Shown here piece by piece: positions 9,305 through 54,200 of a stretch of 64,000 nucleotides of DNA. Each line of letters opens with the position of its first letter. Within the stretch, counting starts at the first letter, position 1. The notes under the pieces are model-generated. The model was not told the origin of the DNA and made no database searches. It was given only the letters and a program-made list of their open reading frames with translations. The DNA is taken from NCBI GenBank assembly GCA_964249215.1, contig CAXUBE010000001.1, positions 5,292 through 69,291 on the forward strand, in the 5' to 3' direction. This DNA is from an uncultured Rhodopseudomonas sp. Lineage in GTDB: Bacteria; Pseudomonadota; Alphaproteobacteria; Rhizobiales; Xanthobacteraceae. The position numbers were made by a program, and so were the translations under genes.

Positions 9305-9390
9305 CGTCGCCGGCGCCCTGATTGTCGTCCGAACGCGCATCGTAGCATATCCGCCGCGACGAGCTACGGCAGCGTTCGACGCGGCTGCTT

Positions 9391-9490: not shown

Positions 9491-9535
9491 TTAAGAGGCT
9501 GGGGGCAGAGTCGCTCCGCAAGCTCGGGGACGCCG

Positions 9536-23253: not shown

Positions 23254-23572
23254 CAAAAATCCTCCGCGCAGACGAAGGACCAATGATCTCGAAGCCGAGC
23301 GCCATTGTCCCTTCGCGAATGGGAATGGCAGCCTTTGCCGGGGACACGCTGCGGCATCGAAGCGTGTGACTAAGGCGATCCGAAACGCCTCGGAACGGAT
23401 TAGAACGCGAAAACGCCGGCCATACAAGGTACCTCGAGCGCGCACAGACCTCGGCGGCGCGGCCCGCTCAAGACCGCCTCGCGCAAGACCGCAGGCAACT
23501 GTAGGGCGGGATGGCCGTTCGATATCGTCGCCCGCGGGCCCGCCTTCGTCGTCAAGGCCGCCGCGTTGAGTG

Positions 23573-35984: not shown

Positions 35985-36065
35985 TTTTTAGTAGACTTCC
36001 ACAGGCGGCGAAGATACACATCCATAAGCTATTAATTCATTAAAATTTTCTCGATCAGAATTTAG
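35985..36065 (+). promoter_or_regulatory. AT-rich island upstream of the giant operon (candidate promoter/operator region)
   Basis: TTTTTTAGTAGACTTCC...CATAAGCTATTAATTCATTAAAATTTTCTCGATCAGAATTTAGAT stands out sharply from the GC-rich flanks. It contains the near-palindrome TTAAT-TC-ATTAA (about 36032-36043). No consensus promoter could be assigned. Confidence 0.3.
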
Positions 36066-36117
36066 ATCGCGGTTGCCCGCGCGCGGCGCAAGCCGTTTCA
36101 AATGATGAGCCAGCATC

Positions 36118-37782
36118 GTGACATTGCCCCAGCCCGACCAGCAGCAGCGCGCCGACATCCAATACGTTCTCAGCCTGACCAACGGCGAGCGCCAGCATCA
36201 CCTGTTCGATTTCAGCGACGAGCATCAGTATCGCTACGCGGTCGCGAAGCTGATACGGGCCGGTAAAACGCCGGACCGTTATCCCGGCCTGCATGAGATG
36301 CTCAGTCGCTCCCGTGACGAGCATATCAAAAACGGGCCGCCGAAAGCCGATGCGCCGGCAAGCGGCGACAATGTTTTCATATCCGGACCTCAGATCACCA
36401 ATTCCGGACTCATCCCGTCGACCCGCAACATCGCCGGCATGGGTTATCATACCCAGATCGGCGGCACATCGATGACCCAGGTGGTGTGTGAGGTCGTCAA
36501 CTCCGACACGAATGGCATCCTCGCTTCGGGGTCAAATGCGCAATACAATCTCGGCGAATACGTTCCGGTGCAGACCAATGACGCAATGGCTGCTCCCGCC
36601 TCGACCAACATGACCACGTCGATCAGCTACTTCTATCAGACGCAGCCCGGTCACCCGATGCAATCTGGGAGCATCAGTTTTAATTTCAAGCGATTGACCA
36701 CGTCGGATCCGGTGGTCACCCAGCCGGTCAAAACACAAGCCAAGATTCCGGCCTATATCGTGGTCGGCCTGGGCCGCGGGAATTACGACAAGACCGCCGT
36801 CGATTACTGGTTCTGGCAGGATAAGGAAGAATATCCGAATCTGGCCGTGCCGCTGGTCGGAAACGTCACTTTCGACAATCCGATTCAGCCGCTCAATCCT
36901 AACACCACCATCACGCTGTTCGTCGATCTCGCAAAGGCCGGTGGCGGTCACGTACAGCCGACCGGTGCGGCGATGGCCAACGTTTATAACAATTTCAAGA
37001 TATCGCAGGCCAATAACAAGACGCTGACCTTTGATCTTCCGGCGAACGGCGTTCAGGCCACGACCAATCCGATCGTGTTCGGCGTCACGACATGGGTGTC
37101 GGATACGGTCACCTATCTGACCGTCAACATGTTCGTGAATTTGCAGGGACAAAGCACGCCATCCTACGCGTCGATCAGCAGTTCGCTCCAGGCGAACCCC
37201 GATATCGTGGACGGGACGACCTACATCAAGCCGATCCAGTTCGTCTGGCATTGTCTTGCCGCAGGCACGGAGATCGCCATGGCCGACGGCTCGATGCGAA
37301 AGATCGAGACGCTGGTGAGCGGCGAGGCCGTGAGCGTCAACAACGACGGCGGAACGATGAAGGTCGAATCGACCATAGTCGCGCCGCATCGCGGACCCGC
37401 GCTCCGGCTCACAATGGCTGACGGCAAGGAACTGGTACTCTCGGACGGCCATGCGGTCACGCTGCCGGATGGCGAGACCCTGATCGCCGAAGAGCTGGAG
37501 GCGGGAGACAAGCTTACCGTCCTCGGCGGCGTCGCCGAGATCGCGGGTGTCGAGAACATCGAATTCGACGGCTTATTGTTCAATCTGTCGCTTGCAAACG
37601 ACGACACCGGCGAACCGACCACCATGTTCGCCAATGGCATTCTCGTTGGGGACCACGCGATGCAATCGGCGACGCGCAAGCGGCGCAGGACCAGGCCCGA
37701 GCGGGTGCGCTCCGCGATCGATCCGATCTTCCTTCCTGATTACGAGAGCTATCTTCAGGATATCGGGCAGACATCGCCGTAG
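36118..37782 (+). CDS. Giant-operon gene 1: protein with ~378-aa unassignable beta-rich N-terminal region, a Hint (intein/Hedgehog-like, BIL-type) domain and an Arg-rich tail
   Basis: 554-aa ORF with a GTG start; the first in-frame ATG is codon 61. Hint blocks are present: WH-CLAAGTEIAMADGSMRKIETLVSGEAV (block A, Cys379 at nt 37252), GKELVLSDGHAVTL (block B, S-x-x-H) and LLFNLSL...MFANGILVGDHAM (blocks F/G without the terminal HN). The tail is QSATRKRRRTRPERVRS. No signal peptide. Confidence 0.8.
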   Translation: MTLPQPDQQQRADIQYVLSLTNGERQHHLFDFSDEHQYRYAVAKLIRAGKTPDRYPGLHEMLSRSRDEHIKNGPPKADAPASGDNVFISGPQITNSGLIPSTRNIAGMGYHTQIGGTSMTQVVCEVVNSDTNGILASGSNAQYNLGEYVPVQTNDAMAAPASTNMTTSISYFYQTQPGHPMQSGSISFNFKRLTTSDPVVTQPVKTQAKIPAYIVVGLGRGNYDKTAVDYWFWQDKEEYPNLAVPLVGNVTFDNPIQPLNPNTTITLFVDLAKAGGGHVQPTGAAMANVYNNFKISQANNKTLTFDLPANGVQATTNPIVFGVTTWVSDTVTYLTVNMFVNLQGQSTPSYASISSSLQANPDIVDGTTYIKPIQFVWHCLAAGTEIAMADGSMRKIETLVSGEAVSVNNDGGTMKVESTIVAPHRGPALRLTMADGKELVLSDGHAVTLPDGETLIAEELEAGDKLTVLGGVAEIAGVENIEFDGLLFNLSLANDDTGEPTTMFANGILVGDHAMQSATRKRRRTRPERVRSAIDPIFLPDYESYLQDIGQTSP

Positions 37783-37832
37783 CCCGCCGCGGCGGCCCGG
37801 GATCGTCGATGGCGACATGACACGGCGGGGGC

Positions 37833-40800
37833 ATGGTTGATACACCGGTCTTTATCAGCGGATCTTATGATGCTTCCGGCAGGGTTTTGGCTGCGTGGCA
37901 GTATTCCGGTGCGGTCAATTTCATTCTGGCGGTTTTTCAAGGCGAGCCCGCTGGCACATCCTGGATCGCGTCGACTCCGGTCACGGGCTATATCGGAAGC
38001 CTGACGATCAAGCCCGCGTCGCTCGATCCGAGCTTCGCCTATACGGTCGCGGTGGCTGTCGATCAGGGCAACGGCGTCCCCGGACCGTGGAGCGTGCCGC
38101 TGAGCCTTGTGTTCCAGCGGGTCACCGGCATCTTCACCACCTATACCGGCAACGCGCTGACAGTCGGCTGGACGATCCCTTACCCCAGTTCGATCGCGAA
38201 GGTGGCCGTCGCGCTGACAAACACGACCACCGGCATCACGATCAGCAAGACGTCGAGTGGAATCTACAACGACAATGAAGTGACCTTCGCGCTGAAGACG
38301 CCGCTCGCCATCGGCGACGCGTATACGCTGGCCCTGACCGGCGTGAGCGGTACTTTTTCCGGACCGCCTGCGGGTGGGCCGGCTCCCATCGTGGCGGCGC
38401 CGAAGCTGAGCAGCCTGACCTATACGGTCGCAAAAGTCGGGACTGCAAAAATCGCCGCCATCGCCGATGTGGTGTTTCCTGCTCCTGCGCCGCAGGTCGT
38501 CATGCAGTTGTACGAGGACGGTGTCTCGATCCTGCAACAACGCGGACAGGGGTTTGTCGCGCAACTCGATCTCGCCGCGCCGCTGTCGCTTTGGTCGACT
38601 TACACGGTCGGCTTGTTCTATCAGGATGGTTCGAACATCGGGCCTGTCGGCAATCACGGCAACGTCCTGCAAACTGCACCGACGATTGTGTCCACGGCAT
38701 TCGACGGAACCAACGTCACCGTGACCTGGACGATCTTGCCCGGCGATCCAGCGCCGACCGGCGCCCAGGCGACGCTTTATGACGTTGCCAACAAGAACAA
38801 CGTCGTCGGCGCGGGTTTTGCCAACGGCCTGTCAACGACGTTTGCTCCGGACGAGACGCTCGGCGTCACGGGAAACTATGCCCTCGCGCTGTGTCCGCTG
38901 CAGGGTCAATCGCAGGGCGCCGAAGGACCGGCGACGCCCGTCATCGCCGCGACCAGGGCGATCACCTCGCTCGGCTATGACGGCGCGCGGATTCTGGTGG
39001 CCTATGCCGATGCGCTCGGCACCAACGTCACCGGTTACGTGCTGCATCTGATGTCTGGCACGCAGTCGGTGCGACAGATCCGGTCCGGGCTGACCGGCGG
39101 GTTGATCGACATCGCGCTCGATCAGACAACGCCATATCAGGTCGCCGTGCAGGCGGTGGGCGGTGTCGCCACCGGGCCGATCGGCCCCGCCATCACGGTC
39201 ATCACGCAAGTTCCCGCGCTCGGCAACATTGCGCTGAGCGCACCGAACAATGCGCCGCAGGTGGCAGCACAGATCACGCCGCCCGGCGTAATGCCGAACG
39301 GCGCCAGCTATCTCGCTTATCTTTACGAGGGCGACCGGCAAGTCGCGGGGCCGATCACCGCCTCCGGATCGCCGCTGATCGCGGTGTTTTCGATCGACGC
39401 TTTCGGCAAGAGCGGGTTTACAGTCCGCGCTGCCGCAACGGCGACGATCAACAGCGCGACAGTCACGGGTCCGCTGAGCCCTGCTGCGCCAGTGCTCGGG
39501 GCAGCGCCGCGGATCACCTCGGTGATGGTCGAGCCGGATGCAGCCGACGCGACCAGATGGCGCTTCACCATCGAATGGGTCTTGCCCGACGTCGCGCCTG
39601 GCGCACTCGCCACTTCGGCGGTCACGGTGATGCAGGGTGCGAGTGCCGTGGCGACGTCTCCTGACGCGACCGGCACCGGCGTTCAGTTCTCTGTCGCGAT
39701 GGCGAGCATCGACGCCACCAAGCCCGGCAGTATCACGGTCGCCTCCAAGGGCCCGTTTGGTGTGAGCCCTTGCAGCGTGGCCGTGAGCGTGGCCTTCGCC
39801 GCGCCGGCGTTGCGATCCGTCGTCTGCGGCAATCGCGAAATCGCGGCGGACTGGACCTGGTCGCAGGCCGACAGCGCGGTTGCTGCCATCGCCAGTTCCT
39901 ACCGCATCCTGCTTTATGATCTCAGCGTCTCGCCGCCGGCCTTGATCCATGTCTCTGCGTCCACGCAAAGCCTGAGCAGCGGCCTGTCGATGACCGAGGC
40001 CCCGCTCGGCCATCTGACGAATGTGGGCATCGGCATCGAAGTCGATGCCGGCCTGTCGCAATGCCGAAGCGCCGGCAGCCCCACAGCCTTGGTCCTGGAT
40101 CCGCCGGCCATCACATCCAGCGCGGTGTCGGGCACCACGCTGACGCTCGCATGGGCGTCGCCCGCGATCCCGGCGGGTGTGACGATCTCGGGCTATCTCG
40201 CGCGATTCCGCGTCGGTGGCGGTGCGGCTATGACCGCGACGATTTCCGGTACCGCCGCGACCGCCACGATCGATCTCGGCACGATCAGCGGATTGACGGA
40301 TGACCCGATTCAGCCAGCACAGGTGACGCTTGCTGTGCAGGCCTTGACGGTGACAGGCCCCGAGAGTGACGGCGTGCCCGTCCTGCGCCATGCCGCGACG
40401 GCGACGCCGAACGCGATCGCAACCGCCACGACCATCGTGGCGCAGTGGGAGCCTGCTCCCGGACCGGTCGAGACTTACAAGGTCGTCATCGCCAAGGACG
40501 GAACGGCCGTCATGACGGCCTATTCGCCGGTCGCCGTTATCACCGTTCCGAACGCCTCTCAGGTCAAGGACAGCACTTACATGCTCGCCGTGACGCCGAT
40601 GATCGGTGCAGCGGCGGGGCCGGCCAGCCCGTCGCTTGGTCTGGCGCTGATCGCGCCTGCATTGTCCGATGCGGTGTTCGATGGCAAGATCGTGACCGCG
40701 ACCGTGACTCCTCCGGGTATCGGCACCACGCTGGTGACCGGCTATCGGATGATGCTGTCCGTCAACGGTCGCACCACGCAGAGCTATGACGCCCCCTTCG

Positions 40801-41985
40801 GCGGCACCATCGCGATGCCGGTGGATCGTCCGATCGACGCCTCGGCCGCCTATGCGGTCAGCGCAAGCGCGCTCGCCGGAAACGCGGTCGGCCCGCTTGC
40901 CAATCCTGCCGTCATGATCTCCAGTGCCCCGGCCATCACGGCCGTGACATGCACCGGGACGAGCCTGGTCGTGACGCTCGATCCGTCTTCGGTCGCGGTC
41001 GGTGGCACCACGTTGCAGGGATGGCTGTACACAGATGGCATTGTCGGCGATGCGGTGGTGGCGAATGACAACAAAGTCACCTTCACGGTTGCTGCCGGGC
41101 ATGGCTATCAAGTCGCCTCGCAGGCAATCAAGGGCGGCAGCAAGGGACCGCTGTCGAGTCCGATTGCCGCGTTGACCGTTAGTCCGGCACTGGCGAGCGC
41201 AATCTACCGAGACGGACAACTCGCGATCGCCTGGAGCGGCACGGACGGAAACGGCTGCTATCTCGTCACCGTCGCGACCACGGCGGCTCCGGTGATTCAA
41301 TCGCGCGTCAGCGGCCTCGGCACTATTCTCGCGTTCAACGCAGATCCGACGATCAGCTACACGCTCGCCGTCCAGCAGATCGACGGGATCGTCACCGGAC
41401 CGGCAATGGCCGGCACCGCTATCGCCACATCGGGCTGTGCTGTCAGTTCCGTGGTTTTCACCGATACCGCCACGGCGACGATCACTTGGAGCGCGCCAAC
41501 GTCGCAAGCCGCCAGCGTCACACAATACCAGGTCGTGGCGGTCACGACCGACGCCGGCGCCGAACAGATCCTCAAAATCGTATCAGCGCCGACGATGACC
41601 GCGTCCGTATCAACAGCCGGTCTGTCACCGGGGCTGAGTTACGTCGTCGCGGTTCGTCCGGTCATCACCAACGCGACCGGGCCGATCGGCCCCCCGATCC
41701 CGCTGGTCGCATGCCTTCCGTCGGGGCTTGAGGCCTATTACGACGGCCATGCCATCGTCGCGCAATGGACTGCGGCCGCCGACCCCCGCATCACGGGATA
41801 TCACGCGATCATCTCGATCGCCGGACAGAACGACATCCCGGTCGATACCGCATCGACATCGTTCCGGTATGTCTACGACATATCCGGCGTGGCTTCGACG
41901 GCACCGATCGCGGTGAAGGTCGCCGCCTGGGTCGGCAGCGGCTCGATCGGGCCCAATACCGCCGCAGTCGATGTCCGCACCGGCA
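37833..41985 (+). repeat. Array of ~15 divergent FN3-like protein modules (repeat at protein level only)
   Basis: I set the module boundaries by eye from the recurring pattern: PxL/I.S....G..L.V.W, then (I/V)(T/S)GY....., then Y.V.V.A, then GP.S/GP. No nucleotide-level repeat is evident, so the modules are old and diverged. Confidence 0.6.
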
Positions 41986-43190
41986 ATCCGGCCTTCTATG
42001 TCGGCGATCTTCCGAGCGGCGTGGTTCCGGCTGTCTATGCTTGCCCGACCGTGCCGCCCGGCGCGACCGATCTCGTTTTCTATCTGCCCGAACTGTTCGC
42101 CACGCATCAGACGACCGCGATCACACAAGGACCGTTCACGCTCACGCCGATGACGCCGGTCGTGGCACCTTACGCCTATACGGTGAGTATCGCCACAAGC
42201 AGCGATCTGTGGAGTTTTGCGAGCGTTTCAGCGCGGCAGACCATCGCGTCGCAGTTCGCAAGTTTCCTCGCGACCATTGCCGGGACGACGGGGGCGTTCG
42301 TCGAAACGCCGCGCATCTTGCAGCAGACATTGGCCGCAGGGCTGCCGCTCAGCTTCACCGAAAGTCTGTTTTATCGCTACAGCTTCGATCCGTTGATGCG
42401 TTACGTCGATCTGCAAGCCGGCATGCGTCTCGAAATACGCTTTGAAAGCTATCAGTACGTTACCGGCAACAGCGACGGGATCGACGGCTTCGTCACCGGC
42501 ACCTCCGTGGTCTACGATATCGCCGCGCTTCCGGAAGGCTCTGGCCTGGGGTTCATCGCGCTCGATCCGTTTCTCGGCTCGCTGCAGGCGATCAGCTTCG
42601 GTGCGCCACAACAGGGTGGCGCGGGCGGCATCATCGATCTGCAGACAGCGGCATACCGGCGCCCTTTCATCCGGCTGTTCTATCCGGCGAGCTTCCCGTC
42701 GGGACAGAGCACCGGCAGTCCGGATGCCAATCACGCGGTCGCCGTGGTCGCCGCCACGACGTGGAGCGCGCTCGATGGCGTCACCCAAAGCTTCATTCAG
42801 TTCGGCACGTTGCCGGCCGCCTCTGCGACCGTCTCGATCACCTATTTCCGCGGCCGCGCCGTGCTGACGCCATTGATCGCGGTGAGCATCAATGGCGCGA
42901 GCAGCTTCGTGCCGCTGGGTACGACGCTGGGGTCCACCTTCGCCGCGCATGGTCTGATGCCGGCGCTTACCGGCGTTGCCGCCTCGGGGCTTTCGCTGCG
43001 TCGTGCGGTGACGCCCAACCTGTCGCCGACGGAGATCGCATCGGGCATCAAGCTCGCGAACAAACGCCCCGTGATGGCGCTCTATCAGAAGCTCGCCGCA
43101 CTTTCCGATGGCACCACCGTGTTCGACTTGCCGCTGGTGCAAGGCGACGAAATCTTGACCGGCCGCCATGCCGACGCGTTGGCGCGATGA
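37833..43190 (+). CDS. Giant-operon gene 2: 1,785-aa protein with ~15 tandem FN3-like modules and a ~400-aa non-repeat C-terminal domain
   Basis: Codon usage and amino-acid composition are coding-like (Ala/Thr/Val/Gly/Pro rich, not Arg-rich). There are recurrent ~90-aa modules with FN3-type anchors (LTVGWTIP, VTVTWTILPGDP, IAADWTW, LTLAWASP..ISGYLARF, IVAQWEPAPGP.ETYKV, ATITWSAP..VTQYQVV, IVAQWTAA..ITGYHAI), each ending in ..GP.S.P. No signal peptide. Confidence 0.8.
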   Translation: MVDTPVFISGSYDASGRVLAAWQYSGAVNFILAVFQGEPAGTSWIASTPVTGYIGSLTIKPASLDPSFAYTVAVAVDQGNGVPGPWSVPLSLVFQRVTGIFTTYTGNALTVGWTIPYPSSIAKVAVALTNTTTGITISKTSSGIYNDNEVTFALKTPLAIGDAYTLALTGVSGTFSGPPAGGPAPIVAAPKLSSLTYTVAKVGTAKIAAIADVVFPAPAPQVVMQLYEDGVSILQQRGQGFVAQLDLAAPLSLWSTYTVGLFYQDGSNIGPVGNHGNVLQTAPTIVSTAFDGTNVTVTWTILPGDPAPTGAQATLYDVANKNNVVGAGFANGLSTTFAPDETLGVTGNYALALCPLQGQSQGAEGPATPVIAATRAITSLGYDGARILVAYADALGTNVTGYVLHLMSGTQSVRQIRSGLTGGLIDIALDQTTPYQVAVQAVGGVATGPIGPAITVITQVPALGNIALSAPNNAPQVAAQITPPGVMPNGASYLAYLYEGDRQVAGPITASGSPLIAVFSIDAFGKSGFTVRAAATATINSATVTGPLSPAAPVLGAAPRITSVMVEPDAADATRWRFTIEWVLPDVAPGALATSAVTVMQGASAVATSPDATGTGVQFSVAMASIDATKPGSITVASKGPFGVSPCSVAVSVAFAAPALRSVVCGNREIAADWTWSQADSAVAAIASSYRILLYDLSVSPPALIHVSASTQSLSSGLSMTEAPLGHLTNVGIGIEVDAGLSQCRSAGSPTALVLDPPAITSSAVSGTTLTLAWASPAIPAGVTISGYLARFRVGGGAAMTATISGTAATATIDLGTISGLTDDPIQPAQVTLAVQALTVTGPESDGVPVLRHAATATPNAIATATTIVAQWEPAPGPVETYKVVIAKDGTAVMTAYSPVAVITVPNASQVKDSTYMLAVTPMIGAAAGPASPSLGLALIAPALSDAVFDGKIVTATVTPPGIGTTLVTGYRMMLSVNGRTTQSYDAPFGGTIAMPVDRPIDASAAYAVSASALAGNAVGPLANPAVMISSAPAITAVTCTGTSLVVTLDPSSVAVGGTTLQGWLYTDGIVGDAVVANDNKVTFTVAAGHGYQVASQAIKGGSKGPLSSPIAALTVSPALASAIYRDGQLAIAWSGTDGNGCYLVTVATTAAPVIQSRVSGLGTILAFNADPTISYTLAVQQIDGIVTGPAMAGTAIATSGCAVSSVVFTDTATATITWSAPTSQAASVTQYQVVAVTTDAGAEQILKIVSAPTMTASVSTAGLSPGLSYVVAVRPVITNATGPIGPPIPLVACLPSGLEAYYDGHAIVAQWTAAADPRITGYHAIISIAGQNDIPVDTASTSFRYVYDISGVASTAPIAVKVAAWVGSGSIGPNTAAVDVRTGNPAFYVGDLPSGVVPAVYACPTVPPGATDLVFYLPELFATHQTTAITQGPFTLTPMTPVVAPYAYTVSIATSSDLWSFASVSARQTIASQFASFLATIAGTTGAFVETPRILQQTLAAGLPLSFTESLFYRYSFDPLMRYVDLQAGMRLEIRFESYQYVTGNSDGIDGFVTGTSVVYDIAALPEGSGLGFIALDPFLGSLQAISFGAPQQGGAGGIIDLQTAAYRRPFIRLFYPASFPSGQSTGSPDANHAVAVVAATTWSALDGVTQSFIQFGTLPAASATVSITYFRGRAVLTPLIAVSINGASSFVPLGTTLGSTFAAHGLMPALTGVAASGLSLRRAVTPNLSPTEIASGIKLANKRPVMALYQKLAALSDGTTVFDLPLVQGDEILTGRHADALAR

Positions 43191-46100
43191 GCGATCCGGC
43201 CTTCACACGCCTGGCTATCGTCGATCCTTTTTTCGTTCTGGATCTCACCAGCGATGCCGTGGACCCTGGCCATTTTACCTGGGCATTTTTGCCGGCCACT
43301 GCCAGCGCGGCGCTCACTCTGACGCCCGCCCAGACATTCGCGGCCGCGGGGATCTATGTCCTGATCGACCGGCCGATCCGCGATCAGTCCGCATTTCTGA
43401 CGGCGCTGCGATCCTTGCTGCCGGGAATCGGCACGCAAAATCTTCGGTTCTTGTGGATCACCACCGACGGGTCCGATCTCGCGCAGGACTGGCAATTGCT
43501 GCCATTGCGGGCGAGCGCAACGAGCGGCGGGAGCGCGACGCTGACGGCGCCGTTCGTTATCTCGTTCAACGGCGGCTATGCGCTGCAGATTGCCAGCCGT
43601 GCAACGCTGGCGCTGACCGCGAGCGCTTTCACTCTGTCGTTCGCCGGCGACGGGCAGGTGGCGCAATTCAGCTACGGCACCCGCGCGCTGGTGATACCTT
43701 CACCGGTTACGCTGCCTCTCAGCGGCATCGGCGTCGGCTGCTTTGGCTGCACCGCCACGATGACACGGCCCAACAGCGGGCCGAGCGACTTCGAGATGCT
43801 CGGGTTCGAGCTTCGCTATTTCGCACCCGACGACAGCCAGCCGCGGCCGGGACTGGCCCGCTCGTTTCGTTATCCGGTGTTCACGCAGCCGGTGGGAACG
43901 GCGATGTCCCTGACAGGTTCGTTCGATCCGCTGTCGCCGCTCATGCCGTTGCGAACCTATCTGCAATTCGGCAGCTCGCCAGTTCTGCCGTGCTTGTTCG
44001 TTTCCACGACCGGACAGGCGCTCGACGCGACGCCGGTGATGAACCCGACAGTGCCGATGGTTCCCGCACGCATGGTATTTGCACCTTCGCTGACCCACAC
44101 CACGGCGTCGAAAGCCGATCCGTATTACATGTGTCCAGCCGGAGCCTTTGCGATCGCACCCGCAACTCCGGTCGCGCAGAACTTCAGTCTGATGTGCGGT
44201 GCGTCGGGAGTCGAGAACTTCAATCTCGGGAACGCCGGCAGCCTGTTGCATTTCGTTCCCGGTCAGAATGCCTTCGCACCGAAGCTCGGGCAACGGGTCG
44301 GGCACGGTTTTTTCTCCGACGACGGTCCCGACAGCCTCACCGCCACGGGGCAGACGTCGTGGGCCTATCCCGTCAACGTCGCGACAGCGCCGGTGTATTA
44401 CGCCCAGCCTGACGACGCGCAACTCTACACCATTCCGTCGCAGTCGATCGGCGCAGCTAACGCATTGGCGTTCCAGCCCGTGCCGGCGGGCAAGATGCCG
44501 CCGCCAGTCGAAGCACGCGCGCTGCCGATGGTGCCTTACACCGGCATCGCCGCCGGCAACACTGACCTGTTTGAAGAGCTTGAGCGCAGCGCGCTCAGCC
44601 CGGTCCGTCGCAACGTCGTGGCGGCGCTGACCGGCAGTGGGCGGCACGACGCGAAAGCGGACGGTATCGACCTGATCGCCGCAACGCCGGGCGGCATCGT
44701 CGTCACGCTCGACGGCAGCTTGACGCAATGGAAAAGCGTCGTGTTCGGCAACAGCGCGGCCGCGGCCAGTCCCGACGGGCTTGCACGTCACTTCGGTTTC
44801 GAGAATGTCACAGGCGGTTTTCGAGCCGCCATTCAGACCAACCAATTGTTCAGCGTGATAGCCGATCCCGCCGGCCTGAGCGGGATGATGACCCAGACCT
44901 ATCGGCTTAACGGGGACGCGGCCGCATCGCTGCGCCATCATGCGCGACGCACACGGGACGCCGATCTCGATCGTCTGGTCGCCGCGGCCGACGGGCGGAT
45001 CGGCGGGGTGGCGCCACAAGTGTTTTCGTCTTTCGCTGCATTGTTCGCCGAGATCGAACACGCCGCGTTGACCGACGCCGACATTTCGCACTACCGCGAG
45101 CTGTTCGAGCAGGCGACCGTGGACGGCGAACTGTGCATCGAGCAATGGACCTTCAAGCTGTCGCCGACCAACTGGCGCAGCGACACCATCATGATTCTCA
45201 AATATGCCGGTCGCAGCATCGACGATCTCGTCAGCGATCCCGGCGCGTGGACATGGCAGCAGGCCGCGATCCGACCAGACGGTTCGCTGCAACAGACCCA
45301 GGCGCAGCTCCGCGAGATCATCGCGGCGGCCCGCACGTCCAACGCCAAAACGCCTGCCGACCGGGTGCCGGCCTATACCGGTTTCCTGCGTGACATCATC
45401 GACGATCCGCAATGGGCGGGTGTCCTGTTTCTCAACGTCAAGGTGCCACCGACGAGCTTGCCTCGGCAATTGCAGGGTCTCGCGGCGGGCATCGACTTCG
45501 CGCAATTCAAGGCGCACCACTTCGCGATATCGGCGACGCCGATCGATATCAAGGGCGGCACGCTCGATACGCGGCCGAGCAGTCTGCGGGCCTTGATCGA
45601 CTATCAGGATCAAAGCGACCAGTTCGTCAACGCCACGGTCGACTATGCATTCAAGGTCATCGTTCTGCAGGTGTTGTTCGAGAACTCCGCGATCGTCAAT
45701 TTCTTCAGCCAGATCCAACTTCAGATCAACACGATGTTCTCCGCGCCGGTGCTGCTCTCCCCCACCGAACGCGGCAACAACGTGGTGCTCACCGGAACGT
45801 ATCAGCGCAACGAGGACGGCAGCGGCTATTACGATTACGCCCAGAGCGGCTCGAACCGGTTCGCCGTGCGCAGCAATGTGCTCGACGAGGTCGAGACCCT
45901 GAGTTGCCAGTACGTCAGCGCCGATCCGCAAACCATCGGCAACGTGACGGTCATCGGTTCGCGGTTCGAGTTCACCGGTCGGCTGCGGTTCTTCGAACTC
46001 GACTATTTCGACGCCTTCTCGTTCGGGCCGATCTTCGATGCCGAAAGCAATCAGCAGATCTCCGACGGATATCTGGCATTTTCCAACCTCGTCATCGGCA

Positions 46101-46735
46101 TGACCTTTCCGCAGGACCATCCCGACCACGTGACGTTCGGATTCGATGCCGGCGCGCTCGGCTTTAATCTGGCGCAGAGCGTGGCGCGGCCGATGAGTCT
46201 GTTCCGGCATTTCCCGCTCACCTTCTCCGGCCTCATCGCGGTGCCGCAACCGCCCGCGAGCGCAGGCCAGCCGACCGCAGTCACGCCGGGCAGTCTGGGC
46301 TATATCGAATGCACGACGCCGCTGCAGCCCGGCCATCCAAATCCGCCATGGTACGCGCTCGCCTTCGATCTCGACTTGGGAACTCTGGGGTCGCTGGCCG
46401 GCAATCAGAAGCTGGCGGTCGGCATCATCAGCGCATGGGGCAACAGCGGCGATGCCTATAACGTTTACGTCGGCCTCAAGCTGCCGGGCTCCAACAGTGC
46501 GAAGCCGGAAATTCCCATCGAGGGTCTGTTGAAGCTCGCTTTCGGCAAAATCGAATTCACGGCGAGCGACGGCGCGACCGGCCGCATCTACATGCTGAAG
46601 CTGCGCCAGATCGTGTTGCGCATTCTGCTGCTGAGCTTCCCGCCCGGCAATCTCGACCTGTTTCTGTTCGGCGATCCGGCGGCGCGCAGTCGCAACAGCG
46701 CGCTCGGCTGGTACGCCGCCTATGCGGACGAGTAA
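43187..46735 (+). CDS. Giant-operon gene 3: 1,182-aa protein without recognisable domains
   Basis: The ATG at 43187 overlaps the TGA of gene 2 (ATGA). Composition is coding-like. The 426 nt that the track ORF adds upstream of this ATG overlap gene 2 and were rejected. No signal peptide or TM segment seen at the N-terminus (MSDPAFTRLAIVDPFFVLDL). Confidence 0.75.
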   Translation: MSDPAFTRLAIVDPFFVLDLTSDAVDPGHFTWAFLPATASAALTLTPAQTFAAAGIYVLIDRPIRDQSAFLTALRSLLPGIGTQNLRFLWITTDGSDLAQDWQLLPLRASATSGGSATLTAPFVISFNGGYALQIASRATLALTASAFTLSFAGDGQVAQFSYGTRALVIPSPVTLPLSGIGVGCFGCTATMTRPNSGPSDFEMLGFELRYFAPDDSQPRPGLARSFRYPVFTQPVGTAMSLTGSFDPLSPLMPLRTYLQFGSSPVLPCLFVSTTGQALDATPVMNPTVPMVPARMVFAPSLTHTTASKADPYYMCPAGAFAIAPATPVAQNFSLMCGASGVENFNLGNAGSLLHFVPGQNAFAPKLGQRVGHGFFSDDGPDSLTATGQTSWAYPVNVATAPVYYAQPDDAQLYTIPSQSIGAANALAFQPVPAGKMPPPVEARALPMVPYTGIAAGNTDLFEELERSALSPVRRNVVAALTGSGRHDAKADGIDLIAATPGGIVVTLDGSLTQWKSVVFGNSAAAASPDGLARHFGFENVTGGFRAAIQTNQLFSVIADPAGLSGMMTQTYRLNGDAAASLRHHARRTRDADLDRLVAAADGRIGGVAPQVFSSFAALFAEIEHAALTDADISHYRELFEQATVDGELCIEQWTFKLSPTNWRSDTIMILKYAGRSIDDLVSDPGAWTWQQAAIRPDGSLQQTQAQLREIIAAARTSNAKTPADRVPAYTGFLRDIIDDPQWAGVLFLNVKVPPTSLPRQLQGLAAGIDFAQFKAHHFAISATPIDIKGGTLDTRPSSLRALIDYQDQSDQFVNATVDYAFKVIVLQVLFENSAIVNFFSQIQLQINTMFSAPVLLSPTERGNNVVLTGTYQRNEDGSGYYDYAQSGSNRFAVRSNVLDEVETLSCQYVSADPQTIGNVTVIGSRFEFTGRLRFFELDYFDAFSFGPIFDAESNQQISDGYLAFSNLVIGMTFPQDHPDHVTFGFDAGALGFNLAQSVARPMSLFRHFPLTFSGLIAVPQPPASAGQPTAVTPGSLGYIECTTPLQPGHPNPPWYALAFDLDLGTLGSLAGNQKLAVGIISAWGNSGDAYNVYVGLKLPGSNSAKPEIPIEGLLKLAFGKIEFTASDGATGRIYMLKLRQIVLRILLLSFPPGNLDLFLFGDPAARSRNSALGWYAAYADE

Positions 46736-46744
46736 GGCAACCAT

Positions 46745-48271
46745 ATGCCCGAGACGATCACCATCATGTACTGGAACGTCCAGGATCTCGGCACCTTCAG
46801 CCCCTGGCGCCGCGGCACCAACTATCAGCCGATCTGCAACTTCATCGCAGGCATGGCCGAGCAGAATAACGTTGACGTGTTCTGCCTGATGGAATCACGC
46901 CGCGATTTCGTGCCGCATATTCCGACACTGTTGGCGGCATTGGATGATAGTTTCGGGAATGCACACAAGAATGCGGACTGGTACTACGATTGGATTCCAG
47001 GCTCTATCAAAGGAGATCTCAATACGCGTTTTGCCGAAGACGACACCCCGGAAGAAAAGCTCAAGCGGCGTAAGGTCTCTGTCTTCCAGGATCGTGAGGC
47101 CGCACGCCGCACCCCGACGCAATTTGATGAACTTGCCTACACCACCACCGGCCACTACGAAGGCTACGTCATTTTATGGAACAGAAGTTCTGCCGCGTTC
47201 GACATGCTCATACGTAATGCGGGACCATCGGGCGGAGTCGTGACCGGTCTCAACGGTGACCATGCGGCCGCATATCACGCGATCAACCTGGTGTTCGAAG
47301 GCCGCGCGGTCACGGGATGGGTTCCTCGTGCTCTTGTACATAGCCAGCACTATCAGCTCAGCGCATCCGGCTATGATCCCGCCAATCCGGGAAATACCGA
47401 TTGGGCGCATCTGGATTTCTCGCAACGCTTGTTGGCCAGCGGACGCTGGTACGAGGTCCGGCGCCCGGCTTACTGCACGTTGGAGATTGCCAACCAGGTT
47501 GGTGATGCTGCCAAATATCTGCCTATCGTCGTGTTCCATGCGCCGAGCGCCGAAGGCAGCGGCGCCTTCGGCGGGACCGACCGATGCGGGTTGAGCCGCC
47601 CGATGTATCAGGCGCAACGACTGGACGGGCAGTGGGTCAACGCCAACCGTGTCGTCGTTGGCGGCGATTACAATGTCAGCACCCAGCATGAGTATAATTA
47701 TGTCTACACGACTTTTACGGCGGACCGTGGCGCGGACGATGACACCGGCGCGGGATGCGCACAATTCGTACCTTCGCGCAGCGGCACCGGGCAGGAGGAT
47801 TTATCGAAATCGATCGTGCGTGTCACGCAGCCCAGTCCGCTGGGTGGTGGCTATCGCAATCTGATCCAGATTGAACCGGCGCTAGGTCATATCGATAGCA
47901 ACGATCTCTATCGGTCGTTCGCGGTCGACAACATCTTCACGCGCGGGTTCTCCGCCGCCGTCGCGCCGCTGGCCAATTATGAAGTCTACAATCTGCAGGT
48001 TCAGCTTCAGACCAGCCAAAGCGCCGTCGTAACGCTGTCCAAGGCAGCGTTCTACAATTTCATCCAGCAGGAAACCCGAACTCTTGCCCGCGACGGCACC
48101 GGCAATCCGCTGTCGTTTGGTACTGTGCTGTTTTATACCAACATCCTCGACTATCCGCAGATGATGGCGCAGCTCAACGGCCGCCAGTTCACCTCGCCGC
48201 GGCGCACTGCCGAATTCACCAACACGTTCCTGAGCGACCACATGCCGCTCATCGTTTCCGTCACGACCTGA
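46745..48271 (+). CDS. Giant-operon gene 4: endonuclease/exonuclease/phosphatase (EEP, DNase I-like) fold enzyme with large insertions
   Basis: EEP motif series in the correct order: IMYWNVQDLG (Asn11), DVFCLMESRRD (Glu50), VVFHAPS (His265), VVGGDYNVS (Asp308/Asn310), AVDNIFTRG (Asp395), FLSDHMPLIVSV (Asp498-His499). 508 aa against roughly 250-300 aa for minimal EEP enzymes. No signal peptide. Confidence 0.8.
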   Translation: MPETITIMYWNVQDLGTFSPWRRGTNYQPICNFIAGMAEQNNVDVFCLMESRRDFVPHIPTLLAALDDSFGNAHKNADWYYDWIPGSIKGDLNTRFAEDDTPEEKLKRRKVSVFQDREAARRTPTQFDELAYTTTGHYEGYVILWNRSSAAFDMLIRNAGPSGGVVTGLNGDHAAAYHAINLVFEGRAVTGWVPRALVHSQHYQLSASGYDPANPGNTDWAHLDFSQRLLASGRWYEVRRPAYCTLEIANQVGDAAKYLPIVVFHAPSAEGSGAFGGTDRCGLSRPMYQAQRLDGQWVNANRVVVGGDYNVSTQHEYNYVYTTFTADRGADDDTGAGCAQFVPSRSGTGQEDLSKSIVRVTQPSPLGGGYRNLIQIEPALGHIDSNDLYRSFAVDNIFTRGFSAAVAPLANYEVYNLQVQLQTSQSAVVTLSKAAFYNFIQQETRTLARDGTGNPLSFGTVLFYTNILDYPQMMAQLNGRQFTSPRRTAEFTNTFLSDHMPLIVSVTT

Positions 48272-48279: not shown

Positions 48280-51200
48280 ATGGATTGGCAGGATCTTCAG
48301 CCATCCGTCGATGGCCTTATCTCCGGGGGCGTGCTGACCCTTGACCAGACTCACAACCTGAATTCACCCTCGATCCTTGCTCTGCTGACGTCGACCCGCC
48401 TGCTCGCGGTTGTCGCCGACGTGTCCTCCAAGGGTTATCAGGGCACGCACTACGTGGTGCAGGGGGCGATCGAGCGCGCAAATTTCCCTTACACCATCGG
48501 CAGCGCGGGCAATCCGCTGCCGGTGACGCTGGATTTCTACGTCCAGGATATGCTCGCGCAGATTACGGCGACGGTGACGCTGCCGTCGAATTACACGCTC
48601 GCGATGAGCTTCCCTTACATCCTTGACCAAGCGGTCAACCTGTTTCCGATCGGCGCGGCGAGCATGACATTCGCCTCGGTGGGAAACGATCCGCCGGATG
48701 CGCCGTCGAGCATTCTCCTGCCGCCGCCCTATAAGGGCATGTCGATCGCCGGCACGATGTCGGGGTTGGCTGCCAATCCGCTCACCAGCAGCCTGTTGTG
48801 GTTCATTCCCGACCGCGACGTCTTTCCGGTCAGCGGTCCGGTGATCATGAGGGAAGGCGTGAATTACCTCGGCGAGACCGAGTACCGGCCGACAATGTAT
48901 CTGATCGGTGCGCTGCTGGAGCCGCTGTCGCTCGGACCGTTCCGTTTCGGCGTCTCGCTGATGGCGCAGTCGACCTACGCCAGGATCACCGGCTCCGATC
49001 AGTCCTCGTTCTACAGCGGCGCCTACTACATCGGTCAGTTGCAGGCCGCGATCACCCGGCAGCAGGGGATCGACGTGCTGGTCCAGATGCAACTGCTGGA
49101 CGGCTACCAGAGCCTGTACAGTTTCGAGCTGTCCAAACCGATCCCCCTCACCAGTCTCAATCAACTCCAGGACATCGCCGCGCTCTCTCCCGGCGAGAGC
49201 TATTCGGCGATGATCCCAAGTGAAGTACCGACCGGCCTGAGGTTCGAACTGAACGAACTGACCTTCATCGTCGCGCCGACGCTCAGGACGCTGGCCTCGA
49301 TGACCCTTGGCGTCAAGCTGACGGTGCAGTGGGAGGTCATTCCCGGAGTCTTCACGCTTGAGAATATGTCGCTGCGCTTCGTGGTGCCGAACCCGGCCGC
49401 GGAGCTATCTGGAGTCGTTGCGACTGCAGCCGCCGAGTTGCACATCTTCGACGGTATCTTCGATGTCTCGATGACGTTTCCGAGCCTGCGCATTCTCGGC
49501 CAGATCAGGCAAGGCACGCAGATCACCTACGCCGCGGTCTCGACGGCGCTGTTCGGGAAGGTGCTGGAGCTACCGGGCATCGCCGATCCGACGCTGTACG
49601 AACTTTCGGTCGATATCGAGCCGCGTCAGCAAACCTATCGGATATCGGCCGTCGTTCTCGACCTGCTGTCGGTCGATCTCGGCTTCGTCACAATCAACCT
49701 CGACGAGGTCGATATTGCCTTTACCTACAGCTCGCTGTCACAGGCAGGCCGCTTCGGGGCGCGGTTTGAACTTGTGACCGCCGGCAACGACGTTGAGGCG
49801 AGCGACGATCCCCTGACCTTTGGCTTTAGCGTGAGCGCCGCAGGCATGCGGACCGGTGGCGTGACGACGTGGACAGTCGAAGGCGGCATCGGCGCCGACC
49901 ATGTGATTCCGCTCGGAACTTTGGTGGCTCGATTGCTGGGCTTCTCGGTTTCGCAGGATATCAGCATCCTCGACATCGAGGATGTCTTGGTGTCGATGAC
50001 GATCCCGAGCACCGGGCCGACCAGCTTCTATTTTGAGGGCGCGGCGCGATCGCGTTGGACCATCGGCATCTTCGGCGGCTGGTCGATCGAGATCGCCGCG
50101 GCCGCACGGCTGGAGCGCATTCCCGCCGAAAGCATTTCGCTCCTGACGCTGCCGGCGATGCGCCCGCTCGACACGGCCGGCATGCAGACCAGCGGCGAAA
50201 TCTCCGGCCGCCTCGCGATCAACAATTTCAATCTGGCCGTGGTCTATCAGTTCGCGCCCAACAGCCGGGTTCTGATCTTCCAGGCGAGCTACAAGCAGGC
50301 CACCCTGACTGCCGCGCTGTCCAAGGGGAAGGATGCGAAAGGGCAGGACACTTATCTGCTCAAGTTCAATCTCGCCGGCGTGACGCTTGGAGACATCATC
50401 ACCTGGATGGTCAACCTGGCCCGACCGGGCAGCGACTTTTCACTGAGCGCGCCGTGGGACGTGCTCAACGGCATCGATCTGTCACGCTTCACGCTGGTCG
50501 TCGATCTGATTCAGAAGACCGTGACGATCAGCTACGAGGTCAATGCCGATTTCCTCTTCATCAAGCTCAAGTCGATCGGCCTCACTTATTACCGCAACCA
50601 GGGCAAGGGGTCGGTCAAGATCGCCGTCGAAGGTTCCTTCATCGATGTGAGCTATGGCGACGGCAACCCGCCGCTCGAATGGGACTTGCTTGACGATCCA
50701 CCGCCGGCGGTGCCGGGCGAGACCGGGTTGTTCAAGCTGCGCTATCTCGGGCTCGGCCAGCACATTTCGCTCGATTCCTACGCGCAGATCGACACTGTCG
50801 AGCAGGCGATCGAGGGGCTGCGCGCGGCCATGCGGCCGCCCGAGGCGGCCGATGAGAACCCGTTGCTGCAATCGGGCACCGTCGCGCTCAATTTCGACGC
50901 CAACAGCCACTGGCTGTTCGGCGCCGATTTCACCGCACTCGGCGCGCTGCAACTCTCCATGGTGTTCAACGATCCGTACATTTACGGCGCGCTGATCCGT
51001 CTGATGGGCGAGAAGGCCGGGGCGCTGGCGGGGCTGCGTTTCGAGTTGCTCTACAAGAAGGTGACTGACGACATCGGCGTCTTCAAGGCCGACTTCATCA
51101 TGCCCGATGCGTTTCGCCAGCTCGAATTCGGCGAGGTTTCGATCACGCTCGGCCGCGTTCACGTGGACATCTACACCAACGGCAATTTCTTCGTCGACCT

Positions 51201-54200
51201 CGGTTTTCCGCACAATCGCGACTTTTCCAATTCGTTCGGCTTGCAAGTCTTTCCGTTCGCCGGATGGGGCGGGTTCTATCTCGGTGCGCTCACCGGCGCG
51301 ACCTCGATCAAGGTGCCGCGGATCGACAACGGCCGGTTCGATCCGGTCATCGAGATCGGTCTCGGCCTGTCGGTTGGCGTCGGCAAAACCATCGAGAAGG
51401 GACCGCTTTCCGCGGGAATGACGCTGACCTTCGAAGCCATCGTCGAAGGCGTATTCGCTGACTTCGCGCCGACCGACCGATCCGCGGCGAGCGGTTTCTT
51501 CTATCGCGTCGAGGGCACCGCCGCATTGGTCGGCAGGGTGTTCGGCAAGGTCGACTTCTTCGTCATACGCGTCGACTTCAGCGCGGAAGCGAGCGCCCGC
51601 GTCACGCTGGTCATCGAGGCGCATCAACCGATCTATGTCCAGATCGAGCTTCACATCGACGTTCGCGCCAGCATCAAGATCTTGTTCGTGCGCATCCACT
51701 TCAGTTTCTCGCTGACGCTCGACCTGGCCTTCACCATCGGGCACGCGACGTCGACGCCATGGCAGATTGCCGATGACCAGACCGCCCGGCTTGATCTGTT
51801 GGCAGCACGCAGCGGTCCGCACTGGCCGTTCCCGGCGATGCGGCCACACTACAAGCGGCTCGTGCGCTCCACGCGGCTGCTTCGTCATGTCGCCTCCGGT
51901 AACGGCCCGTCCGCCTATGGTCTCCTGGGCCGCAAGGAGATTCGTCACAGTTCGCTACCGCCGCTTTATCTGCAGAAGGCCGCTGCCGGCACGTTGACGT
52001 GGACGCCAGCCAATGTGTTTCCGGCAGGCAAGATCGAAACGCTGCGGCTGTTATGCACTCCCGGTTTCACCGTGGCCGATCCGGGGATTGGCAGCAGCGG
52101 CACGCCGGGAGCCTATCGCCTGGTCCTGACCATGGGCGCGGAAACCAGCCGTCACATCCAGTTGCGCGGCAATGCCGGGCTCGGCGTCCCAAGTGTTGCT
52201 CACAGCCTGCAGGCCACCGCGGTCGCCGATGCGCCGTTCAACCTGTTCATCGAGGCGTTCCTGCGCTGGGGGCTCAACATTGTGAAGACCGGCGATCAGG
52301 TCAGCGCCGTCGCGCTCGATGAACTTGCAGCCAACCTGCGCCTGCCCGCAACCGCAGGCACCGGGTTCTCCTACGCGAACCTGATCGCCTTCCTCAAGGA
52401 CAACTTCCTCATCTCGATCGCCGGAAAGCCCACCGGTGCAACCCCCGACGAGGTGCCGGTGGCGGCATTCCCGATGCTGCCGCTGTTGTCCTTCACCGCC
52501 GACAAAGGCGCGCCGGTCGCGTTCGACCAGCCGCAATATATGCTCACCGCCGATTACAGGGCTGCACTTGACACGATCTTTTACCAGCTTTCGGCGACCG
52601 GCAAGCCCCGTCGCGATTTGCAGGACGATGCCGTGGCGGAGAGCTTCGCCCAATTCATCTTCCGGGAATGCTGCTTGATGGTGACGCAGGCGGCTGTCGA
52701 TGCCTGCATCGGGCTCTTGGAATCCTTTGCCTATAAACTGGAAGCAACCACCACGCTGAAGGGCATCGTCGATGCCTTCGCACCACTCCATATTGCCATC
52801 AGCGCCCGCGGCGGCCAGAAGCTCGCCCATATCGCTGCGTTATTCGGGACCGATATCGAACGATTGCAGGCGCTCAATCCGCCGCTCGTCGCCAAGGCGC
52901 GGCTTGCCGCCGATGATACCGTTGTGGTGCCCGTCGAATTGACCGTCGGTGCGATCATCGACGACAATCGCGATCACCCGCTCGCCGCAAGGAGTTTTCA
53001 GGTCGATGCCGCGCCGCATCAGATCCGGGGTGACCGTAGTCTCAATCAGATTGCCACCGACTACGGGCTCGAAACGGCAGTGAATCTCGTCACGGGACAG
53101 ACTGCGACGCAACGCGAGCTGCTGCGGCCCGACGCCAGCATCATCTGCTCCGTTCTGCAATACACCTCGCGCGTCGGCGACACGGTGGCGTCGATTGCCG
53201 CGCTCTATCTGGCGCGGCGGGCCCAACTCGGCGATGCGACCGCGCGCGCGGCGTTGGTGCCCGACATCGCGCAATGGTTCGCGCAGGCTGTGGCCGACCT
53301 CAATCCCAACCAGGACTTCGGCAGCGTCGTGCCGGCGAATACGGCGCTGAATGTACCGAAGACTTATGGCAGCGTCGCGACCACGACGTCATACACGAGC
53401 TATGCCGGAGACACGCTCGACACGATTGCCGATGCGCTCTCGCTGCTCAATCTGGCTTCACCGCCTGCCGTCCTCACCGCGTACCAGGTGGCGATCGTGC
53501 AGGCCAATCCGAGCCTGCCAAATCCGATTCCGGTCGCGACGGCAGTGAAGATTCCGGCTTTTACGCTCACGCTTCCCGCGCGCGTCGCCCTCGACGATCT
53601 CGCCGCAGGTTTGCTGCAGACGCTGGCGAAGACGATCGGGCTCATCGCCGACAATGCCGCCGCTTTGACGCCACACACCGTCATCGTGCTTCCGCCCTTT
53701 ACCATCACGACGACGGCAACGGACACGTTCGCTGGCTTGGCGCAGAAGTACGATCTCGGTTACGACGCGCTTGGCAACGCGGCCGAGTCGGTTGCTGGAA
53801 TCTTCGCGACCGCGCCGACGGCAACGGTCACGCTCAAGGATCTGCCGCGCGTCGGCGTCGAACAGCTCATCTCCCAGCTCATCACCGGACAGGGACTGGC
53901 CAACCAGATCAGCGGGCAGATCTCGCGCTTCCTGCTTCATGGGGTGCGGGTGCCTTCGCCTACCGACGCTCATCCGCTTACCGCGCCGCTGGTTTCGATC
54001 CTTGATCTGAGCGGACAGCAATTTCCAGGCCCCGATCCGGAGCAGTATGGCAACGGCGAGACCTATCCGATCGTGGTCTCGCTCACCGATTCCGCCGACC
54101 AGAGCTGGATCAGCTTCACCGCCACCGAGACCTTGCAGCAGGGCGAGACCCTGCCGGCGTTGCGCGCGCGCATTGCCGATTTCGATCGCCACAATCCGGC

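Follow-up and report, generated by a model that had tools for sequence, protein, structure and literature searches.

A bacterial Hint protein with Hedgehog-like traits and predicted N-terminal autoprocessing heads a conserved five-gene cassette

Here we analyze gene 1 of a 64,000-nucleotide (nt) stretch of DNA, referred to below as the window, from an uncultured Rhodopseudomonas sp. (assembly GCA_964249215.1, contig CAXUBE010000001.1, positions 5,292 to 69,291 of the forward strand). Judged from its motifs and profile matches, gene 1 is a signal-less, cassette-linked member of a known, uncharacterized Hint family with traits of the Hedgehog autoprocessing (Hog) domains. We consider it fairly probable that the precursor it encodes is processed in a Hog-like manner at His378/Cys379, via a thioester and with no splicing. 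The Hint domain is apparently active in self-cleavage, and its catalytic layout resembles that of the Hedgehog autoprocessing domain more closely than that of an intein. Gene 1 heads a conserved, tightly packed cassette of five genes and 24 kb.

RESULTS

Fold and active-site residues of the Hint domain

The C-terminal part of gene 1 is modeled as a genuine HINT fold. The full-length AlphaFold model, built on an alignment of 15 homologues (pLDDT 85.5, pTM 0.81), was matched by Foldseek with a probability of 1.0 to Tetrahymena BIL2 (BIL, bacterial intein-like), the gp41-1 intein, a C. thermocellum BIL, and some 45 further structures of inteins or Hedgehog domains, at TM scores of 0.7 to 0.84 normalized to the target. 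A family profile of the Hint region matched inteins and BILs in the PDB (E 4e-10 to 1e-5). NCBIfam recognized intein_Nterm over amino acids (aa) 379 to 447 (E 0.0025) and rSAM_Rv_intein, a model of intein-containing radical SAM proteins (E 5e-8). All Pfam Hint models stayed below their gathering score on gene 1: the search proposed in an earlier note made from the letters alone (the original prediction) gave a subthreshold signal for Hint_2 (E 0.006, 17.4 bits, cutoff 28.4) and for Hom_end_hint (E 0.04), and nothing for PF01079 and PF07591 at E<=1. The original prediction had placed a Hint/BIL domain at position 37252, and fold, profile, and alignment agree with this, the codon of Cys379 starting exactly there. 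It had also proposed a Hint/BIL/Hog-type module that does not splice and whose size leaves no space for an endonuclease. This is likewise supported: the domain measures 134 aa and cannot accommodate one, and its N-terminal catalytic set is conserved (Table 1).

The proposed equivalence of the Cys and His positions to the Hint catalytic residues was upheld by alignment, which places Cys379 opposite Cys1 of the Prp8 and RecA inteins and Ser442/His445 in block B. The histidine of the SDGH motif is His445; the original prediction had numbered it His446. The motifs HCLAAGTEI, LVLSDGHAV, and FANGILVGDHAMQ span aa 378 to 386, 439 to 447, and 504 to 516, respectively, and the whole protein has two cysteines, 124 and 379. 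At the end of the domain, profile alignment sets YANDILTHN of gp41-1 opposite FANGILVGD, with Gly511 at the penultimate His position of inteins, Asp512 at the terminal Asn position, and His513 as the +1 residue. As anticipated, there is neither a His-Asn nor a +1 Cys/Ser/Thr nucleophile, and hence no splicing is expected. The further claim of a C terminus devoid of any catalytic residue needs correction, because an Asp holds the Asn position in 97% of the family representatives.

Table 1. Gene 1, its parts, the other cassette genes, and alternative fourth genes (positions refer to the window unless a locus handle is given)
Feature	Position	Strand	Basis or remarks
Gene 1, 554-aa precursor	36118..37782	+	ORF (open reading frame) list; GTG start, no signal peptide
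N-terminal domain, 378 aa, predicted released fragment, 41.2 kDa	36118..37251	+	AlphaFold models
Predicted scissile bond His378/Cys379 (-1 residue and Cys1 nucleophile)	37249..37254	+	Conservation, profile alignment
Predicted HINT fold of 134 aa (aa 379-512), without an endonuclease insert	37252..37653	+	Foldseek against PDB; family profile against PDB
His424, position 46 from Cys1	37387..37389	+	hhalign: opposite Hedgehog Asp46 (weak, E 0.006)
Block B Ser442-Asp-Gly-His445 (T/S-x-x-H)	37441..37452	+	Matches gp41-1 S-E-E-H, Hedgehog T69/H72
Asn489 at intein block F:4 (Asp) position	37582..37584	+	LLFNLSL opposite gp41-1 ELIDIEV
Block-G-like FANGILVGD	37627..37653	+	Opposite gp41-1 YANDILTHN
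Conserved C-terminal extension, aa 513-554, 42 aa	37654..37779	+	AlphaFold: three short helices
Gene 2, 1,785-aa fn3-repeat giant	37833..43190	+	Pfam fn3 E 1e-16; 50 nt after gene 1
Gene 3, 1,182 aa, no recognized fold	43187..46735	+	Translation; ATG overlaps gene 2 stop (ATGA)
Gene 4, 508 aa, endonuclease/exonuclease/phosphatase (EEP)-type motifs WN, ME, GDYN, SDH	46745..48271	+	Motifs read in translation
Gene 5, 4,072-aa giant	48280..60498	+	Pfam LysM E 5e-11; LysM-like repeats aa ~1500-3500
Metallo-beta-lactamase-fold fourth genes in other cassettes	L002:20219-21655; L022:31187-32680; L023:19147-20562		

Conservation across the family

An exhaustive profile search recovered at least 431 cluster representatives of the family (50% identity) at E<=1e-30; a word-indexed search for relatives of gene 1 found 15. 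The homologues start in one common alignment column, and the best 150 of the 431 representatives are nearly all 530 to 650 aa long with the same layout of N-domain, Hint, and tail. Residue conservation was counted over 143 full-length representatives (clusters at 50% identity). Cys379 and His445 are kept in every one of them, and position 442 is Thr in 75 and Ser in 67, i.e., Thr/Ser in 142. Toward the end of the domain, Asp512 is retained in 139 representatives (97%), Gly511 in 134 (94%), and Asn at position 489 in 130. The residue preceding Cys379 is His (89), Gly (35), or Ser (16), and the column of His424 holds His (80) or Glu (43), together 123. The +1 residue is variable, most commonly Tyr, His, Asn, Ala, Val, or Gly, and is never a conserved nucleophile. 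On these counts the N-terminal catalytic residues of the family are under purifying selection, and their absolute conservation makes N-terminal cleavage freeing the 378-aa domain, as had been proposed, the best reading of the predicted activity.

Neither a full-length protein lacking the Hint nor an N-domain-plus-tail protein without it was seen among the best 150 of the 431 representatives; the shorter representatives inspected (P0040 and P0073) are truncated or frameshifted fragments. The absence of Hint-less full-length relatives from this set argues for a fixed functional module and not a mobile intein.

Sec or lipoprotein signals were present in 26 of the 162 family proteins examined. The exported members inspected carry a cysteine pair in VCLxRxxxxCDY, where the window clade reads IGLGRG....VDYWFW with no cysteines. 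The lack of both signal peptide and Cys pair is consistent with a non-exported window clade, while the exported members are reminiscent of secreted Hog proteins. One exported protein with a signal peptide, P0140 (882 aa), has two tandem copies of the N-domain followed by a single Hint plus tail. No relatives of gene 1 were found in phage records or among IMG/VR viral contigs, leaving a phage origin unsupported, and PHROGs and PADLOC scans of genes 1 to 5 returned zero matches.

A conserved C-terminal extension

A tail after the Hint had been rightly noted, although it comprises 42 aa (513 to 554) instead of 41. Its description as nothing but an Arg-rich tail did not hold, since it is a conserved, motif-bearing, predicted-helical extension in every clade. 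AlphaFold places helices at aa 513 to 525, 527 to 533, and 536 to 552, with a pLDDT in the block of mostly 78 to 94. The motif VGD-x-x-MQ ... LP-x-x-WH-x-DY-x-S/N includes Gln516 (108 of 143) and Asp541 (137, with Glu in the other 6); Pro predominates in column 535 (97 of 143; Asp in gene 1) and His in column 539 (94 of 143; Leu in gene 1). Richness in Arg is peculiar to the window clade. The motif also occurs in exported members and in orphan genes without the operon, which suggests that the extension belongs to the autoprocessing module itself. In the HINT fold both termini meet at the active site; the extension would therefore start at the catalytic center, as the SRR region does in Hedgehog.

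The N-terminal domain

Modeled alone (pLDDT 87, pTM 0.87), the N-domain is predicted by AlphaFold to consist of a three-helix head (aa 8 to 72) followed by tandem beta-sandwiches (aa ~90 to 377). Fold searches against PDB and viral libraries returned just generic matches to Ig-/fn3-like tandem beta-sandwiches at TM ~0.2, among them transglutaminase barrels, complement C3 MG domains, and RbmA; the matches to C3 and Cpe0147 were not taken as evidence of thioester or ester-bond domains. The Pfam scan assigned no family, and no enzyme or toxin fold was recognized in the fold searches. The fragment sizes first estimated at ~40 and ~19 kDa agree with the computed masses of 41.2 kDa for the N part and 18.7 kDa for Hint plus tail.

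Relation to known Hint systems

Bürglin (2008) described bacterial proteins that carry a Hint-like domain at the C terminus and resemble one another weakly in the N-terminal region, termed them "yet another type of Hint protein" while also crediting Dassa and Pietrokovski, and noted signal peptides in some members and two conserved upstream cysteines (PMC2362128). Additional files 16 and 17 of that paper list M. xanthus MXAN_6253, S. aurantiaca STIAU_1829, P. luminescens plu1731, and proteins from Reinekea, Serratia, and Yersinia, in rows that show SCMAEGTQVKLADG, AGGFLVGD.TMQ, and ..RLP (PMC2362128). Our family agrees with them in domain order and in the motifs SC(L/M)AEGT.., A(N/G)G(I/F)LVGD..MQ, and a downstream ..LP, and full-length homology links it to a lipoprotein from Myxococcus (P0099; E 1e-64). 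By these matches, gene 1 is assigned to the Bürglin family. It differs in that its clade has no signal peptide or cysteine pair and in that it heads a five-gene cassette, of which the 2008 paper makes no mention.

With Hedgehog/Hog proteins, gene 1 shares the order of N-terminal cargo, Cys, Hint of ~135 to 145 aa, and short C-terminal extension, together with Cys1 plus T/S-x-x-H, the absence of splicing, and a conserved polar residue at the very end of the Hint. It also shares an acid/base residue at position 46, which in Hog activates the nucleophile that comes in; the family has His or Glu there; Hog-Hint domains are distinguished by Asp or His at this position (PMC7765530). In Hedgehog, the SRR/ARR region directly follows the Hint module (PMC2362128, PMC12054796). 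An hhalign comparison set Ser442/His445 opposite Thr69/His72, in a weak alignment of just residues 5 to 74 of a hand-entered Hh-C sequence. In Bürglin's alignment, read as text from optical character recognition, the family VGD falls in the block opposite ASCYA, with Asp512 near Hedgehog Cys143. The family has an Asp in place of the cysteine of the Hedgehog SCY motif, C143, which forms a branched thioester. Other differences are the extension, which is 42 aa and polar against ~65 aa in Hedgehog and is unrelated in sequence to the SRR, the prokaryotic distribution of the family, and the non-exported state suggested for the gene 1 clade. Overall, the resemblance to Hedgehog is weak (Foldseek rank 45, hhalign E 0.006).

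The best structural matches are A-type BILs (C. thermocellum BIL, 2LWY; Tetrahymena BUBL BIL2, 6Y75), which are defined by a C-terminal His-Asn without a +1 nucleophile (PMC4031507, PMC7765530). Gene 1 likewise has no +1 nucleophile, a block-G-like C-terminal motif, and, by prediction, autocleavage rather than obligatory splicing; however, it ends in Gly-Asp where these BILs end in a conserved His-Asn. B-type BILs have by definition the N-terminal intein motifs without similarity to block G; in gene 1 these motifs are present, as is the block-G-like ANGILVGD. A- and B-type BILs lie in hypervariable regions of non-conserved proteins, unlike the present family, in which position and flanks of the Hint are fixed across hundreds of clusters.

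The gp41-1 mini-intein is similar in size and fold (TM 0.84), in its block B Ser-x-x-His, and in ANDILTHN as compared to ANGILVGD. Gene 1 differs from it by the missing His-Asn and +1 Cys/Ser/Thr and by an Asn in place of the block F Asp, and from mini-inteins in general in that its family shows no intein-free alleles among the best 150 of the 431 representatives and its Hint does not occupy a conserved site within a housekeeping protein. With no C-terminal His-Asn, no +1 nucleophile, and no intein-free alleles seen, a canonical (class 1) intein is unlikely. The pre-toxin HINT of the Streptomyces umbrella toxin UmbC (8W20) is, like that of gene 1, a bacterial non-splicing Hint, and its chain 8w20_A is the top PDB sequence match over blocks A and B (E 4e-10). 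Gene 1 in contrast has no toxin domain or PF07591 match, and the sequence downstream of its Hint is conserved, not polymorphic.

The five-gene cassette

The order of the cassette genes is the same in Rhizomicrobium, a Chloroflexia metagenome-assembled genome (MAG), Solirubrobacteraceae, Streptomyces spirodelae, Embleya, and Thermoanaerobaculia, as well as in a Sphingomonadales MAG (gene 2 partly detected), a Bacteroidota-like contig, and a JGI metagenome contig. Gene 3 homologues in synteny are 30 to 66% identical; neither gene 3 nor its family profile had a Pfam or PDB match. Pfam and PDB sequence scans gave no match for gene 4, and genes 2, 4, and 5 yielded nothing beyond fn3/titin noise when compared to the PDB by sequence. 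An iterated repeat search counted 5 to 8 repeat copies in gene 5, homologues of which (~4,025 to 4,069 aa) end the cassette in L001, L004, L022, and L023. Inspection by eye revealed no evident signal sequence at the N terminus of any of the five proteins.

In two independent cases, the metagenomic proteins P0046 (1,429 aa) and P0152 (1,764 aa), gene 1 is naturally fused to gene 2, with all catalytic residues kept. Locus L023 encodes a free gene 1 copy (8256-9929) and the fused copy P0152 (10001-15295), followed by genes 3 to 5. By eye, the C terminus of gene 2 (42750-43190, aa ~1640 to 1785; IAVSINGASSFVPLGTTL...LPLVQGDEIL) reads as ThiS/MoaD-type beta-grasp-like; it is conserved in the fused proteins and its end is not Gly-Gly.

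The fourth cassette gene is EEP-type (WN / E / GD(Y/F)N / SDH) in the window, Rhizomicrobium, and L004 (L004:18299-19513). Its place in Chloroflexia, Embleya, and the Bacteroidota-like contig is taken by a gene for a ComEC-like metallo-beta-lactamase fold with SHSDSDH (Pfam Lactamase_B E 1e-6), a non-homologous swap between two folds of phosphoesterase/nuclease type. The swap hints at a nuclease or phosphodiesterase role that either fold could fill.

Orphan homologues, with no cassette, occur in Azospirillum spp., Methylocystaceae, Phycisphaerales, and Myxococcus. The plus-strand ORFs downstream of the Azospirillum homologue were rejected as cassette equivalents, being high-GC shadow ORFs; the real genes there are a convergent LodA/LodB-type oxidase operon, a ferritin-like gene, and a di-heme gene. 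The Azospirillum orphans adjoin an insertion sequence (IS) element and a type I restriction gene.

In other genomes, conflict or mobile genes are frequent neighbors of family genes. The Rhizomicrobium gene stands beside a SIR2_2 giant and a gene for a TIR/KAP NTPase (L001:452-9834), the Chloroflexia locus has HSP70-like and dynamin-like neighbors (L002:602-7755), and A. brasilense has an R subunit of type I restriction along with an IS integrase (L010:4034-8884). Two relatives have phage-tail-like injection-system genes as neighbors. In L004:2500-8999, genes for Baseplate_J (956 aa), a 726-aa protein, and DUF6519 lie on the same strand as the cassette, which begins ~1 kb downstream, and the Myxococcus lipoprotein homologue adjoins Laminin_G_3 and eCIS_core+Fic genes (L024:2974-10912). 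An extracellular contractile injection system (eCIS) near the window cassette was considered and rejected: the ten largest flanking ORFs scanned are metabolic, transporter, and AAA/VWA genes, none phage-tail-like. The Embleya flanks hold housekeeping genes, with no phage-tail-like gene among the flanking ORFs scanned.

GC content is 0.585 at 36001-38000, the start of the cassette, against 0.60 to 0.65 in neighboring bins, a dip compatible with horizontal acquisition. Elsewhere in the window and unrelated to gene 1, a VWA protein (773 aa) adjoins an AAA_5/CbbQ-type ATPase (404 aa) in a MoxR/CbbQ-VWA-like pair (20135-23667, minus strand).

DISCUSSION

Proposed processing of gene 1

In the mechanism that we favor, the precursor would have two parts, a 378-aa "cargo" and an autoprocessing module of ~176 aa made up of the 134-aa Hint and the 42-aa helical extension. 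Cys379 would attack the carbonyl of His378 in an N-to-S acyl shift, with Ser442 and His445 assisting, to give a thioester. There would be no splicing step; instead, resolution of the thioester would free the 41-kDa N-fragment from the 19-kDa Hint-plus-tail fragment, the latter staying intact. His424, Asp512, and the extension, at or next to the catalytic center, may govern the choice between water and a specific acceptor in resolving the thioester. Given the His/Glu at position 46, Asp512, and the extension, resolution by a recruited acceptor is plausible; plain hydrolysis is possible. A nucleophile other than water, which the original prediction had raised as a speculation, is indirectly favored by the His/Glu at position 46 and by the conserved extension. 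In the cassette-bearing clade, the processed product would probably work together with the fn3 giant encoded by gene 2.

Several points weigh against this scheme. The literature searched (plu1731, MXAN_6253, and Hint with eCIS, LysM, or fn3) contained no biochemical or functional study of any family member. The match of the family profile to Drosophila Hh-C is weak (hhalign E 0.006, probability 6%, with a hand-entered Hh-C sequence). Hedgehog C143D is inactive (PMC12054796), and Asp is therefore no simple stand-in for that Cys. The extension of gene 1 is polar and basic (pI 10.2) and has no sequence similarity to the SRR, which is hydrophobic. The gene 1 protein has no signal peptide, unlike Hog proteins, and we infer the contacts between tail and active site from the general topology of the HINT fold only.

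A bolder version of the scheme, which we rate as speculative and rather unlikely, would make the family a prokaryotic counterpart of Hog, possibly a relative of its ancestor, in which the extension, His424, and Asp512 recruit and activate a specific acceptor, to which the 41-kDa fragment is covalently transferred. In the cassette clade, that acceptor could be the neighboring fn3 giant, with which gene 1 is fused in the two metagenomic proteins, or else a component of the cell wall to which the LysM giant binds. If true, this would be a so far undescribed case of Hint-driven protein ligation building a very large multi-protein assembly.

Alternative explanations

The main rival, chemically precedented although we doubt it, is a double processing as in A-type BILs. 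After formation of the N-terminal thioester, Asp512 would cyclize to an anhydride and cut the Asp512/His513 bond, freeing the Hint domain and a 42-aa peptide, or else the freed alpha-amino group of the tail would attack the thioester and ligate the tail to the N-domain, which amounts to splicing without a nucleophilic side chain. The position of Asp512 exactly at the terminal Asn of inteins, its 97% conservation, and the block-G-like motif speak for such chemistry, as do the BIL domains among the best structural matches and a tail conserved as a functional C-extein would be. Moreover, the same cyclization step is held to operate in inteins with Asp, Gln, or Glu at the C terminus, and it is by this route that type A BILs, in the absence of a +1 nucleophile, undergo splicing or cleavage (PMC4031507). 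However, the penultimate His that assists cyclization is replaced by Gly in 94% of the representatives, and cyclization of Asp is chemically slower than that of Asn. A functional ligated product would also predict Hint-less relatives, of which there is none in the best 150 of the 431 representatives, and joining of the N-domain to gene 2 in the fusions would require excision of the Hint, yet most genomes encode the two separately.

It is improbable, in our view, that the Hint is catalytically silent and serves as a structural or adaptor domain docking gene 1 onto the gene 2 giant, with no cleavage in vivo. The natural fusions do place Hint plus tail on the N-terminal side of gene 2, and the pTM of 0.81 suggests a Hint packed against the N-domain. 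However, an invariant Cys1 and block B His, along with Thr/Ser, Asn489, and Asp512, are hard to explain without chemistry, and the orphan and exported clades retain the same residues with no gene 2 at hand.

Polymorphic toxins carry Hint modules that precede the toxin, and the umbrella-toxin Hint being the top PDB sequence match would fit a pre-toxin remnant, or else a domesticated mini-intein, that has lost its downstream toxin or extein and kept a meaningless tail, but this is very improbable and largely refuted by conservation, since length and motif of the tail are maintained family-wide, the architecture is fixed in the best 150 of the 431 representatives, no variable C-terminal domain appears among the family sequences inspected, and gene 1 has no PT-HINT Pfam match, His-Asn, or +1 nucleophile. 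The comparison with polymorphic toxins drawn in the original prediction does not fit, with the same architecture across at least 143 representatives and no toxin domain.

Significance

Where the Hog domain comes from is an open question that, Bürglin (2008) hoped, new bacterial Hint domains would help to answer (PMC2362128). In the family analyzed here, all five Hedgehog active-site positions are occupied by conserved residues of a polar or catalytic kind, and the Hint is followed by a conserved extension. Family members occur in culturable, in several cases genetically tractable, bacteria, such as Azospirillum brasilense, Streptomyces spirodelae, Embleya, Myxococcus, and Photorhabdus. The chemistry of a Gly-Asp terminus is relevant to the engineering of self-cleaving tags. 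The 24-kb giant-protein cassette, conserved from Alphaproteobacteria to Actinomycetota, Chloroflexota, and a Bacteroidota-like contig, is an undescribed operon. If an adduct or a protein transfer were demonstrated for the favored Hog-like processing, the finding would speak directly to how Hedgehog autoprocessing arose.

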